24,000 nt of DNA from Halodesulfovibrio sp. (GCF_015482765.1 NZ_JADMLB010000057.1:2101-26100), one strand, 5' to 3'. Positions 16,947 through 20,055 are shown, numbered from the stretch's first letter. Numbers and translations: made by a program. The notes: generated by a model not told the origin, from the sequence alone.

Positions 16947-17258
16947 ATGAAGAATACGATTACCGGAACATTTGCATTCCCCGCTAGCGAACCGGCACTG
17001 GCTGACCATTTTCCGGACAGCCCAATCATTCCGGGAACGCTGATCATTCACAGCTTCATGGGAGTAGTGAGGGAACTCATGCCAGACGCCAAACTACAAG
17101 TGAGTAAATTTCGATTCCGATCTTTTGTAACACCGGAAACATACGAATATACTCTTGAAGCCAAGCCGTTCGGATTTTCCTGCACCTTATTCAACAACGA
17201 TGGAAAAGCCGTCACAGGACGTATTTTGATTCATCATGAGGAACAGTCAGATGCATAG
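16947..17258 (+). CDS. Short FabZ/FabA-like hotdog-fold protein (putative 3-hydroxyacyl-ACP dehydratase subunit)
   Basis: ASEPALADHFPDSPIIPGTLIIHSF aligns without gaps to the FabZ core [24 protein letters not shown]. A GGAGA RBS lies 6 nt upstream of the ATG. The protein is only 103 aa. Confidence 0.7.
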   Translation: MKNTITGTFAFPASEPALADHFPDSPIIPGTLIIHSFMGVVRELMPDAKLQVSKFRFRSFVTPETYEYTLEAKPFGFSCTLFNNDGKAVTGRILIHHEEQSDA

Positions 17259-18009
17259 CCTTCCCATGCACTTCACGGGTACCCATGCCTGCGTCCTTGG
17301 AGCCTCCTCAGATATCGGCATGGCAGTCGCAAAAAAACTTAGCGAAGCGGGGATGCAGCTAACCCTTTCTGCATGTTCAGAAAAAGGAATTGCCCGCATT
17401 ACATCAGCCTTTCCAGCGGCAACTATACTCGAACTCAATTTGGAAAAGGTCGCCCGCAGCGTTACAATAGACACGGGTGTAACCAACTCCCCACTGGGGC
17501 AAATACAACAGCCTGACTATCTTGTGGACTGCATGCAAAGTGATTTTGAAGGGTTCATCGCCGGAGCTGCCCCGAAGGACATTGCCCGATATTTTGAAAC
17601 AAACATTTCAGGCAGAAGCATCTGTCTTCGTCATGTTTCAAGGATGATGCTCGGCAAACGATTTGGTCGCTGTCTGTTTGTCTCATCCACTGCCGGAGTG
17701 CTCCCTAATGCGGGACAAGGCTTTTATGCAGCATCTAAACGAGCCGGAGAAGCTCTCTTCCAAAACCTTGGTATTGAGCTTGCAGCTCGAGGAGTGACCA
17801 GTTGTTCCATACGCCTCGGATACGTGCAGAGCGGTCGAGGCACTGCATATATAAAAAACAACCCTGAAGCAGTGAAACTCTCTCCTGCAAGGCGTGCCAT
17901 CACTTCAGAAGAAGCAGCATCGACCATCATATTTCTACTCAGTGACGAGGCACAAATGATAAACGGAACAACAATTACAATGGATGGCGGATTAACCGCC
18001 TGTAAATAA
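17251..18009 (+). CDS. Short-chain dehydrogenase/reductase, FabG-like (putative 3-oxoacyl-ACP reductase)
   Basis: It has the Gly-rich loop GASSDIG, a catalytic Ser in VSSTAG, and YAASK (YxxxK). ATG 17251 sits 7 nt behind GAGGAA and overlaps the upstream stop (ATGCATAG). The track alternative is ATG 17236. Confidence 0.8.
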   Translation: MHSLPMHFTGTHACVLGASSDIGMAVAKKLSEAGMQLTLSACSEKGIARITSAFPAATILELNLEKVARSVTIDTGVTNSPLGQIQQPDYLVDCMQSDFEGFIAGAAPKDIARYFETNISGRSICLRHVSRMMLGKRFGRCLFVSSTAGVLPNAGQGFYAASKRAGEALFQNLGIELAARGVTSCSIRLGYVQSGRGTAYIKNNPEAVKLSPARRAITSEEAASTIIFLLSDEAQMINGTTITMDGGLTACK

Positions 18010-18018
18010 GGATTTGCA

Positions 18019-18387
18019 ATGTCTACTTTTACTCAAGTTCAACACGTTATTACCGAAGTTCTCGAAGTAGAACCGGAAGAAGTTACGCCCTCCACATACG
18101 TCCTGCGGGATCTCCCGACAGAATCCATTGACTTGATGGAATATGGAATTGGGCTGAACAAGGAATGCGGTATTTCCGTTAGCGACGACATCGTTTTTCT
18201 TAAATCACTCCGCCTTCACATGGCTGAAGCTGAAGACAACGGCATAGAACAACAAATACATCTACGTTCTGTGTACCCGCACCTCTCTACAGACCGCATA
18301 CAGGAAATACTTCAGACCGTTAACGCAGGACCTGTATTACAAGTGCAGGACATTGTTGCCTATATCGAACACGCAAAACGTGCATAA
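18019..18387 (+). CDS. Atypical acyl carrier protein (122 aa)
   Basis: LRDLPTESIDLMEY aligns to the ACP motif EDLGADSLDTVEL, placing the Ser at residue 36 as in E. coli ACP. The C-terminal VQDIVAYIEHAKR resembles ACP helix IV. Confidence 0.7.
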   Translation: MSTFTQVQHVITEVLEVEPEEVTPSTYVLRDLPTESIDLMEYGIGLNKECGISVSDDIVFLKSLRLHMAEAEDNGIEQQIHLRSVYPHLSTDRIQEILQTVNAGPVLQVQDIVAYIEHAKRA

Positions 18388-18396
18388 GGAGCCGGA

Positions 18397-19617
18397 ATGC
18401 GAAATCGAGTTGTCATAACAGGCGCAGGATATGTAACCTCTCTTGGGAATACTCCTGAGAGCATAGCCAGCAATGTGCGCCATAATCTACCGCATTTTAC
18501 TGCATCTCACGAATTCGAGGGATGTATGGAATGCGCTATCACTGACTTTGATCTCGCAACCGTTACCGGACGCTGGAAAAACAGAAAATATCTTTCACGC
18601 GGGGCACAGCTTGCTTTAGCGGCCGCCGTACGGGCGGCAGAAGACAGCAGCGCCACTGCTGACCTTCTGGAACATGCCGGACTTTTCATAGGTGCAGGGC
18701 CTAATCTGGATATCAGTTCAGACTTTCCGAATGTTGAAAACGGCAATATGGACAGTGCGGAACTGGCTGCACTGTGGATGCTGCGCTACCTGCCTAACAC
18801 AGCAGCAAGTGCCATAAGCCAATTTCTTCACATCCATGGAGAAAATTCCACGATAGGAACCGCCTGCTCTGCTTCAACACAGGCAATTGGCGAAGCTTTC
18901 CGGAAAATTAAAGATGGCTATCTTACCGTCGCCTTTGCCGGTGGCGGAGACTCCCGCCTTTCGCACGGGGGTCTGCTTGGCTACAAAAAAGCACAGGCAA
19001 TCTGGAATAAAGGCGGAGATCCGCAAAAGGCTTGTCGCCCGTTTGATGCCGAACGCAACGGCTTTATTGCCGGAGAAGGCGGAGCCATGTTTGTGCTTGA
19101 ATCTCTGGATCATGCACAAGCGCGCGGAGCGCATATAGTTGCTGAAATCTGCGGCTACGGTGCAACAATGGATGCGCACACAATGACTGCTCCGCACCCA
19201 AACGCTGTACACGCTGAAAAAGCAGTTCGGCATGCTCTTCTTGAGGCAGGCATCTCTTCTGATCAAGTTGAACTTATTGCAGCACATGGTACGTCGACCC
19301 CTTTAAACGACACCATGGAAGCACACATGATTGAACGTATTTTTCATACTGAATCGGCAGCGCATATTCCTTTGGTCACAGCTCTTAAATCATGGGTGGG
19401 ACACTGTACCGCTGCATCAGGCGCAGTTGAGCTTGGTATTTTACTAGCCCTGCTCAGTAAAGGAATGATTCCTCCCGTGAGAAACCTGACCACACCGTGC
19501 TCTGAACAGCTTCACTTTGTAACTGAAACCATGTCGCTTCCTGTATCCACCCTCCTGCTCGAAAACTTCGGGTTCGGTGGACAAAACAGTGCACTCGTAG
19601 TGCGTCTCTGGCCATAA
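18397..19617 (+). CDS. Beta-ketoacyl-ACP synthase, KAS I/II (FabF/FabB) type
   Basis: It has RVVITGAGYVTSLG at the N-terminus. The active-site Cys is in GTACSAST, and the two His residues are in AHGTSTPLND and GHCTAASG. NFGFGGQNSAL lies at the C-terminus. The length is 406 aa and an AAGGAG RBS is present. Confidence 0.9.
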   Translation: MRNRVVITGAGYVTSLGNTPESIASNVRHNLPHFTASHEFEGCMECAITDFDLATVTGRWKNRKYLSRGAQLALAAAVRAAEDSSATADLLEHAGLFIGAGPNLDISSDFPNVENGNMDSAELAALWMLRYLPNTAASAISQFLHIHGENSTIGTACSASTQAIGEAFRKIKDGYLTVAFAGGGDSRLSHGGLLGYKKAQAIWNKGGDPQKACRPFDAERNGFIAGEGGAMFVLESLDHAQARGAHIVAEICGYGATMDAHTMTAPHPNAVHAEKAVRHALLEAGISSDQVELIAAHGTSTPLNDTMEAHMIERIFHTESAAHIPLVTALKSWVGHCTAASGAVELGILLALLSKGMIPPVRNLTTPCSEQLHFVTETMSLPVSTLLLENFGFGGQNSALVVRLWP

Positions 19618-20055
19618 ATGCACACTCACAGAACAATCACATTCGACGTTGAACGGTTTATTATGCTGGATGCAATTACTGATTGTACAGCAACAGTTCT
19701 CACGGCTGAAAAACACTTTGCCAACGCTCCTGCATATCTTGCTCTGGAAGCAATGGCACAAACAGGCGGCATGCACTTTAGACACTGCATGAAGTTTTCA
19801 CGCCATGCATTTTTGCTTTCCATTCAAGACACATCTGTACTGCCAAGCATGCCTCTTTCGGGTCTCGCTAAAACAACCGTTACTCAAACAGCGCAAACGG
19901 ACTCAACGGCTGCATATACTATCCAGCTTTCGTGTGCCGATGTGCTGATTGAAGGTGCATTTCTTTTTGGCTGTACAGACTATGGTGCACAGTTCTCTCA
20001 ATCAGCACTTACTACCCACTACAGGGAGTTGTTTCAATGCTTACAGAACGCTTAA
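19618..20055 (+). CDS. Divergent hotdog-fold protein with a FabZ-like LALEAMAQ helix (dehydratase partner or thioesterase)
   Basis: EKHFANAPAYLALEAMAQTGG resembles the FabZ sequence GHFP...LILEAMAQATG. The ATG abuts the KAS stop (TAAATG), and the 3' end overlaps bioF by 19 nt. Confidence 0.55.
   Translation: MHTHRTITFDVERFIMLDAITDCTATVLTAEKHFANAPAYLALEAMAQTGGMHFRHCMKFSRHAFLLSIQDTSVLPSMPLSGLAKTTVTQTAQTDSTAAYTIQLSCADVLIEGAFLFGCTDYGAQFSQSALTTHYRELFQCLQNA

Follow-up and report, generated by a model that had tools for sequence, protein, structure and literature searches.

A five-gene fatty acid synthase-like module in a Halodesulfovibrio biotin operon and its probable dedicated route to pimeloyl-ACP

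Introduction

No part of bacterial biotin synthesis varies more than the making of the pimelate moiety, which was also the last part to be solved. Three routes, those of BioC/BioH, BioI/BioW, and BioZ, have been defined biochemically. For sulfate reducers and syntrophs, the evidence comes only from comparative genomics and from transposon fitness data. Here we analyze a 24,000-nucleotide stretch of DNA from Halodesulfovibrio sp. (GCF_015482765.1, NZ_JADMLB010000057.1:2101-26100; called the window throughout), in which five genes reminiscent of a type II fatty acid synthase (FAS) lie between bioA and bioF. They encode two hotdog-fold proteins (HD1 and HD2), a short-chain dehydrogenase/reductase (SDR), an acyl carrier protein (ACP), and a β-ketoacyl-ACP synthase (KAS), and their product is almost certainly pimeloyl-ACP, from which biotin is made.

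The closest described system is the extended bio operon of Desulfovibrio (DVU2558-DVU2565). Rodionov et al. (2004) noted that the bio operons of Desulfovibrio contain five additional genes and suggested that these provide a new way of making the pimeloyl thioester (PMC545781). An earlier annotation of the window from its sequence alone (the sequence-only reading) arrived at the same hypothesis and named that paper as having noted FAS-like genes in these operons. Using random barcode transposon-site sequencing (RB-TnSeq), Trotter et al. (2023) found nine clustered genes, DVU2558-2565 including DORF42491, to be specifically needed in the absence of biotin, with DVU2560-2563 and the unannotated DORF42491 as the five module homologs in D. 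vulgaris (PMC10102598). In the same study, the unlinked nitroreductase-like gene DVU1220 was likewise specifically required without biotin, bioC and bioH were absent from D. vulgaris, and the housekeeping ACP and enoyl reductase were separate essential genes. Its authors proposed that malonyl-ACP is elongated on a specialized ACP without methyl esters, remarked on the missing enoyl reductase, left the biochemistry to be defined, and drew the clusters of other Desulfobacterota, including H. spirochaetisodalis, in their Fig. S3 (PMC10102598). Publications thus already cover the cluster, the function proposed for it, and the genetics that validate it, and the same genus has already been figured; what remains is the enzymology. 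The interpretation given in the sequence-only reading is therefore right yet not new, having been put forward as a prediction in 2004 and backed by genetics in 2023. The novelty that the sequence-only reading ascribed to the route was overstated, a collinear Halodesulfovibrio cluster having been published as well.

The window compares closely with the Desulfovibrio operon. Both carry two FabZ-like hotdog genes with SDR, ACP, and KAS genes in the same order between bioA and bioF, both have a divergent birA and a BirA site (predicted in the window), and in both, bioC and bioH are absent from the locus and the operon is without a nitroreductase gene. The organism alone differs, being a Halodesulfovibrio relative, and nothing functional sets the window apart.

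Three other systems frame the chemistry. The E. coli BioC/BioH route probably shares its carbon logic with the module, a malonyl thioester being extended twice by C2 units until a C7 diacid stands on ACP, and it serves the same consumer, BioF; unlike that route, the window has no methyltransferase or esterase gene, and a dedicated ACP, KAS, ketoreductase (KR), and dehydratase (DH) replace the housekeeping enzymes. Because there is no methyltransferase or esterase, the free ω-carboxylate must be tolerated by the enzymes themselves. The BioZ route of α-proteobacteria likewise places a dedicated condensing enzyme in the bio cluster, and its 3-oxo-dicarboxyl-ACP is formed without the use of methyl esters. 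BioZ belongs to the KAS III type, with a Cys-His-Asn triad; it joins glutaryl-CoA to malonyl-ACP and leaves reduction to the housekeeping FAS, whereas the KAS of the window is of the KAS I/II type, with a Cys-His-His triad, and is accompanied by a dedicated ACP, KR, and DH. Finally, the ApeI:ApeP pair of aryl-polyene synthesis (Protein Data Bank (PDB) entry 6qsr) resembles the module in combining a short (~100-120 aa) with a longer (~145-150 aa) hotdog gene in a type II FAS/polyketide synthase-like cluster that has its own ACP, ketosynthase, and KR. In both systems one complete active site is possible per pair, as suggested here by residue patterns and monomer models; the substrate in the window would be a short ω-carboxyacyl chain and the product fully reduced, in contrast to an aryl polyene.

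Results

Five FAS-like genes lie within a biotin operon

The gene order in the window is birA<>bioB-bioA-[HD1-SDR-ACP-KAS-HD2]-bioF-bioD, and the open reading frame (ORF) list shows the junctions to be coupled or overlapping. The features are listed below with the E-values of their domain or family matches.

13216-14208, minus strand: birA, bifunctional biotin ligase/repressor (BPL_LplA_LipB, 8e-22; HTH_11, 1e-11; BirA PRK11886, 8e-52)
14215-14248, no strand: predicted BirA-operator-like inverted repeat TTGTAAACT-N16-AGTTGACAA in the birA/bioB intergenic region
14409-15389, plus strand: bioB, biotin synthase (TIGR00433, 6e-112, above cut-off)
15399-16760, plus strand: bioA, adenosylmethionine--8-amino-7-oxononanoate (KAPA) transaminase (TIGR00508, 1.5e-164, above cut-off)
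16947-17258, plus strand: HD1 (hotdog1), short FabZ-like hotdog subunit, 103 aa (weak FabA/FabZ matches)
17236-18009 (maximal ORF), plus strand: FabG-like SDR, presumed 3-oxoacyl-ACP reductase (adh_short_C2, 1e-27)
18019-18387, plus strand: dedicated ACP, 122 aa (PP-binding, 3.5e-4)
18397-19617, plus strand: KAS I/II-type elongating condensing enzyme, 406 aa (ketoacyl-synt N and C domains; fabF, 6e-89)
19618-20055, plus strand: HD2 (hotdog2), longer hotdog subunit, 145 aa (no Pfam match; fold matches)
20037-21179, plus strand: bioF, 8-amino-7-oxononanoate synthase, consumer of the pimeloyl thioester (TIGR00858, 1e-89; Aminotran_1_2, 2e-43)
21166-21870, plus strand: bioD, dethiobiotin synthase (TIGR00347, 4e-38, above cut-off)

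The bio genes and birA are assigned unambiguously by Pfam and NCBIfam; TIGR00858 is the best family for bioF, at 300.8 bits and below its equivalog cut-off of 426. birA is divergent from the operon, along which GC content is even. The SDR likely starts at the ATG at 17251, which is in frame and overlaps the HD1 stop codon (the ATGCATAG junction). Gaps of 9 nt stand ahead of ACP and ahead of KAS, the HD2 ATG directly adjoins the KAS TAA, and HD2 overlaps bioF by 19 nt. The ORF list reproduced the five-gene module between bioA and bioF with all of the coordinates and junctions that the sequence-only reading had given, and the motifs it quoted are present in the translations: ADHFPDSPIIPG in HD1, GASSDIG and YAASK in the SDR, Ser36 within TESIDL of the ACP, LALEAMAQ in HD2, and the Cys/His/His set of the KAS.

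Domain searches of window ORFs of at least 100 aa detected no methyltransferase, α/β-hydrolase/esterase, BioW-type ligase, P450, or KAS III domain, and no bioC, bioH/G/K, bioW, bioI, or bioZ was found within the 24 kb, as had been claimed. The palindrome pattern at 14215-14248 has one match in the window and none in 100 shuffles, and its half-sites fit a TTGTAAACC/GGTTTACAA-type BirA site. Since this BirA-like site sits at the position where Rodionov et al. (2004) placed the BirA site of Desulfovibrio (PMC545781), the nine-gene operon is probably repressed by biotin via BirA.

The module is linked to bio genes across several orders

To place the module among other genomes, we searched an alignment of the KAS against one genome per species, which gave 223 relatives; the best 80 loci were fetched, and their gene content was mapped by tblastn. 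All of these best 80 KAS relatives lie among module or bio genes. The typical order is HD1-SDR-ACP-(gap)-KAS-HD2-bioF-bioD, usually with bioB and bioA ahead, and it recurs in Desulfovibrionales, Syntrophales, Syntrophobacterales, Desulfobacterales, and Desulfarculales; named carriers include Halodesulfovibrio, Syntrophobacter(aceae), Syntrophales/Smithella/Syntrophus, Desulfobacterales, Desulfarculales, and others. HD2 and bioF follow KAS in 61 of the 67 loci with room for them, and HD1, SDR, and ACP precede it in 55 of the 62 that extend far enough upstream. Because the same layout recurs in these 80 related loci, the arrangement is far beyond chance. The linkage to bioF/bioD and bioA/bioB that the sequence-only reading had thought worth seeking in related genomes thus holds among the best 80 loci across several orders.

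The window is nearest to Halodesulfovibrio, with 71-80% identity in KAS and 59-67% in HD2 to named genomes and metagenome-assembled genomes. The locus of H. spirochaetisodalis JC271 (L001) is fully collinear with the window at 59-94% identity per protein. D. vulgaris lies outside the best 80 loci, and it is therefore through the H. spirochaetisodalis cluster of the 2023 paper that the window genes are linked to the DVU genes as orthologs.

Several loci depart from this layout. In several Desulfobacterales-type clusters (L024, L038, L046, L054, L059, L060, and L065), bioA is missing from its usual place and a transaminase 33-36% identical to the window BioA follows bioD; this protein may belong to a different KAPA aminotransferase class. 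L051 and L063 lack an SDR gene between HD1 and ACP, L005 shows bioB-bioA-ACP-nitroreductase-KAS only, and in L014 and L027 the ~5 kb ahead of KAS-HD2-bioF is devoid of module genes. A contig binned as a Methanosarcinaceae archaeon (L072, JBQVLY010000058.1) carries a bacterial-type HD1-SDR-ACP-nitroreductase-KAS cluster; faulty binning is a more probable cause than true presence in an archaeon.

The module proteins are distinct from housekeeping fatty acid enzymes

We searched the module proteins against Pfam and NCBIfam and compared their scores with the NCBIfam equivalog cut-offs. HD1 matches FabA/FabZ families at E-values of 3e-4 to 3e-5 and reaches 23.8 bits with FabZ TIGR01750, against a cut-off of 155. 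The SDR matches FabG TIGR01830 (3e-28) with 98.9 bits against 297.75, and the ACP, which matches its subfamily (3.5e-10) over residues 2-58 only, scores 31.8 bits with TIGR00517 against 70.45. The KAS matches the ketoacyl-synt N and C domains at 1e-32 and 1e-28 and reaches 298.6 bits with fabF TIGR03150 against 493.75; HD2 has no match in Pfam or NCBIfam. With scores so far below the equivalog cut-offs, these proteins are not the housekeeping FabZ, FabG, AcpP, or FabF, a possibility that the sequence-only reading had left to profile hidden Markov model (HMM) searches.

Among solved structures, the KAS is closest to FabF enzymes (E ~1e-61) and the SDR to FabG enzymes (E ~1e-23), and the catalytic residues are kept. 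In the KAS, Cys157, His297, His336, and Lys331, together with the GFGG gate (F391-G395), are invariant across the KAS clade. A signature, L[KR][FY]LPNT[AP]AS, stands in place of the FabF pocket segment VPMMIPDMGSG; within the clade Lys/Arg130 is invariant and, in the alignment with Listeria FabF, stands two residues ahead of the pocket Ile position. Judged by these features and by the location of its best 80 relatives, the KAS is a member of a clade specific to bio operons. The SDR conserves Ser150/151, Tyr164, and Lys168, retaining the Ser-Tyr-Lys triad despite its sub-cut-off FabG score, and it has a family-specific invariant Arg193 and a Gly-Arg201-Gly motif where the FabG substrate loop has Ala and Met.

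The carrier protein differs from AcpP in length and motif, with 122 aa and Ser36 in E-S-I-D against ~78 aa and D-S-L-D. Beyond residue 60 it carries a conserved C-terminal extension of ~60 aa, and Ser36, Arg65, Arg93, Gly104-Pro105, Asp111, and Tyr115 are each at least 95% conserved in 69 sequences.

Lys/Arg130 of the KAS, Arg193 and Arg201 of the SDR, and Arg55 of HD2 (described below) are candidate binders of the free ω-carboxylate. This reading of the basic residues agrees with the suggestion of Trotter et al. (2023) that the active sites are less hydrophobic (PMC10102598).

HD1 and HD2 may form a split-site dehydratase

Housekeeping FabZ, in which each chain carries both catalytic residues, is a homodimer with two active sites; each site spans the dimer interface, taking its His from one chain and its Glu from the other. 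In the module these two residues are found on different proteins. His21 of HD1, in the DHFP segment of its HFP...PG motif, is invariant in all 64 sequences, in which the position of the FabZ catalytic Glu is occupied by H, Q, R, S, or A. Conversely, Glu44 of HD2 (LEAMAQ; family pattern E-[SA]-[LM]-A-Q) is invariant in 74 of 74 sequences, in which no conserved His was found at or near the FabZ His position; Ala47, Gln48, and Arg55 are conserved, Arg55 invariantly, and position 33 is variable. Profiles of both families align with PDB FabZ sequences in the expected register: 'HFPgnPvvPGslivhaF' of HD1 aligns with 'HFPKRPVMPGVLIIEAL' (E = 1.6e-6), confirming the His register, and 'ylglEalAQ' of HD2 aligns with 'VLIVEALAQ', placing Glu44 at the catalytic Glu position.

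Structure prediction points the same way. The AlphaFold2 monomer models of HD1 and HD2 both adopt a hotdog fold, with predicted local distance difference test (pLDDT) scores of 90 and 77. In Foldseek searches, the HD1 model has its best template modeling (TM) score with ApeI (6qsr_A; query-normalized TM-score (TMq) 0.79, RMSD 2.0), and the HD2 model matches FabZ at 2e-5 and ApeP (6qsr_B) at 4e-5 (rank 3, TMq 0.62); FabZ structures were returned for both proteins. Sequence identity to the 6qsr chains is only 13-17%. ApeI/ApeP has been described as a dehydratase heterodimer that has one active site (PMC8041823). From the residue patterns and models together, we infer that HD1 and HD2 pair as an ApeI:ApeP-like split-site heterodimeric dehydratase. 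Since FabZ sites straddle the dimer interface, an HD1:HD2 heterodimer would therefore hold exactly one complete site, and the division of His and Glu between the two proteins would account for the individual need for both hotdog genes in D. vulgaris.

Ape family models in NCBIfam and the local Pfam gave no match for the hotdog proteins. A protein database lists PF22818 beside FabA (PF07977) for HD1 homologs, and PF22818 is absent from the local Pfam scan. PF22818 is presumably an ApeI-like family, although no paper mentioning it was found, and we treat ApeI:ApeP as a system that works alike rather than one of which the module is a member.

The HD2 family is small and discrete, with 220 representatives at E ≤1e-3 among 1.84 billion proteins, nearly all ~145-150 aa long. 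HD2 belongs to no Pfam family, and annotation readily overlooks or mis-extends it: the H. marinisediminis entry (P0005) is given a length of 179 aa where 145 would be right. Trotter et al. (2023) added the HD2 gene by hand in both D. vulgaris and H. spirochaetisodalis (PMC10102598).

Most related clusters include a nitroreductase-family gene

ACP and KAS are separated by ~650 nt in most loci outside Halodesulfovibrio, compared with 9 nt in the window and three Halodesulfovibrio loci. The longer interval holds an ORF of ~216 aa that belongs to the Nitroreductase family (PF00881, E down to 1e-29). An HMM built from these ORFs matches 67 of the 80 loci, all within the range L005-L080, each time directly upstream of KAS (for example, L006:9326-9991), and the gene is the sole recurrent extra gene, no recurrent acyltransferase, phosphopantetheinyl transferase, methyltransferase, or esterase being found in the best 80 clusters. 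We consider the in-cluster nitroreductase-family protein the likely missing enoyl reductase. The sequence-only reading had stated that no enoyl reductase is present; this stands for the window and fails for the family, most related clusters having the nitroreductase-family gene between ACP and KAS. Because Halodesulfovibrio-type loci are without this gene, their enoyl reduction must come from an unlinked gene, as in D. vulgaris.

Near the start of the window, an ORF at 910-1653 on the plus strand encodes a ferredoxin-like protein in which two 4Fe-4S motifs are combined with an uncharacterized Cys-rich C-terminal domain. It was considered as a DVU1220-like Fe-S nitroreductase and rejected, having the two 4Fe-4S motifs but neither a nitroreductase domain nor an HMM match. 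A Crp/Fnr-family regulator is encoded nearby at 2748-3431 on the minus strand, and both genes are unrelated to the bio operon; the two are reminiscent of the HcpR/FrdX pairing of Desulfovibrio.

The bioA-HD1 spacer

The spacer between bioA and HD1 (16761-16946) is unusually long: other orders have ~30-50 nt at this place, whereas the window has 186 nt and Halodesulfovibrio loci have 230-350 nt. In the relatives it contains GC-rich palindromes (GGTCAAGGGGGnGTCCCCCTTGC) that resemble repeat elements. An RNA element or an extra gene in the 186-nt spacer was considered and rejected, the spacer having no Rfam match and a sequence that is unconserved among four Halodesulfovibrio-type loci. No convincing promoter or terminator was seen in it, and no Rfam family was matched anywhere in the window.

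Discussion

The operon position of the module, the BirA-like site, the sub-cut-off scores, the conserved linkage to bio genes, and two published studies (PMC545781 and PMC10102598) support the claim of the sequence-only reading that a dedicated ACP-based route leads to the pimeloyl thioester without methyl esters. We regard it as probable, and hold this with good confidence, that the extended Desulfovibrio-type operon encodes a private, ACP-dependent, type II FAS-like elongation that supplies pimeloyl-ACP to BioF without the BioC/BioH disguise.

The best-supported mechanism comprises two malonyl-primed rounds. Housekeeping FabD would load malonate onto the dedicated ACP, and the KAS would condense a malonyl (ω-carboxy) primer with the malonyl-ACP extender to give 3-oxoglutaryl-ACP. 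This intermediate would be reduced by the SDR and then dehydrated by the HD1:HD2 heterodimer, in which His21 of HD1 and Glu44 of HD2 would make up one split FabZ-type site. An enoyl reductase encoded elsewhere would convert glutaconyl-ACP to glutaryl-ACP; it could be a nitroreductase-like flavoprotein (DVU1220, or the in-cluster gene in other lineages) or the housekeeping enoyl reductase. A second round would yield pimeloyl-ACP, to be taken over by BioF, whose gene overlaps HD2. The points of this scheme that we infer are which primer is used, how many rounds take place, that HD1 and HD2 form a heterodimer, which enzyme acts as the reductase, and what the basic residues do.

Several observations weigh against this scheme. 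Both a malonyl primer bound to the KAS cysteine and 3-oxoglutaryl, which is a β-keto acid, are chemically prone to decarboxylation, and for this reason the two-round route is not self-evident. The proposed heterodimer is drawn from residue patterns and monomer models, and HD2 has conserved His residues of its own, His63 being invariant and His53 ~95% conserved. Nor are the HD1 and HD2 profiles significantly similar (hhalign probability 4%), and a direct profile-profile link between them was rejected at that value. An HMM of the in-cluster nitroreductases found no reductase candidate in the 24-kb window or in three 21-kb Halodesulfovibrio loci (L001-L003). The search for biotin genes covered the 24-kb window, and a bioC/bioH, bioW, bioI, or bioZ gene could lie elsewhere in the genome. 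Finally, as the sequence-only reading had supposed, we found no biochemical work on, or reconstitution of, any module member in open-access papers and bioRxiv.

The main rival to two malonyl-primed rounds, which we think unlikely, is a single round of elongation on a C5 dicarboxylate primer. A KAS I/II enzyme would here follow BioZ logic: the catabolism of amino acids or aromatics would supply glutaryl-CoA or glutaryl-ACP, to be converted to 3-oxopimeloyl-ACP and then to pimeloyl-ACP. Such a route would bypass both the labile 3-oxoglutaryl intermediate and the decarboxylation problem of the malonyl primer, and the depth of Lys/Arg130 in the KAS appears compatible with a C5 ω-carboxylate. BioZ itself provides a precedent, being reported to use glutaryl-CoA and malonyl-ACP (PMC7645780, PMC8024396). 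Yet KAS I/II enzymes normally accept acyl-ACP primers, and no acyl-CoA:ACP transacylase, CoA ligase, or KAS III was found in the best 80 clusters. A glutaryl-CoA-forming gene is also not among the biotin-specific phenotypes of Trotter et al. (2023) (PMC10102598).

A second rival, quite improbable in our view, concerns HD2, which could be a hotdog thioesterase or a gatekeeper of chain length, releasing the C7 product or passing it on next to BioF and leaving HD1 to dehydrate alone or with another partner. HD2 has no Pfam match, its gene overlaps bioF, and Foldseek also lists PA1618, YhdA, and the Arthrobacter 4-hydroxybenzoyl-CoA thioesterase at E ~2-4e-4, some of these hotdog thioesterases using a Glu of the central helix. 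The best structural matches of HD2 are FabZ and ApeP, however, and its E-[SA]-[LM]-A-Q motif is aligned with the FabZ catalytic Glu; HD1 alone lacks that Glu and is a truncated hotdog like ApeI. Hydrolysis of pimeloyl-ACP would moreover destroy the thioester that BioF needs, and no BioW-type ligase was found in the window. That the module consists of ordinary or redundant lipid genes merely sitting in a bio operon, with pimelate made by a canonical pathway elsewhere, draws its sole support from the uninspected genome beyond the 24-kb window and is essentially refuted by the scores far below the housekeeping equivalog cut-offs, by the linkage to bio genes conserved across orders, and by the biotin-specific phenotypes of the D. 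vulgaris homologs next to separate essential genes for the housekeeping ACP and enoyl reductase (PMC10102598).

Beyond the dedicated elongation on a private ACP, we tentatively put forward, at somewhat less than even confidence, that the family as a whole encodes a complete methyl-ester-free ω-carboxyacyl-ACP pathway, which would combine an obligate HD1:HD2 split-site dehydratase, an FMN-dependent nitroreductase-family enoyl-ACP reductase, and charge handling by Arg and Lys residues. If this is true, a split-site dehydratase and a nitroreductase-fold enoyl-ACP reductase, a class not among FabI, FabK, FabL, and FabV, would be new in kind for primary metabolism.

The window adds no new kind of system, and it is the family analysis that sharpens the questions of enzymology. 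Two testable points are contributed: that the dehydratase is a heterodimer with a split site, and that the reductase is of the nitroreductase family, encoded in the cluster in most lineages and not here. The conserved basic residues are a candidate device replacing the methyl ester, and a self-contained six- or seven-gene pimeloyl-ACP module could serve the engineering of biotin or pimelate production.

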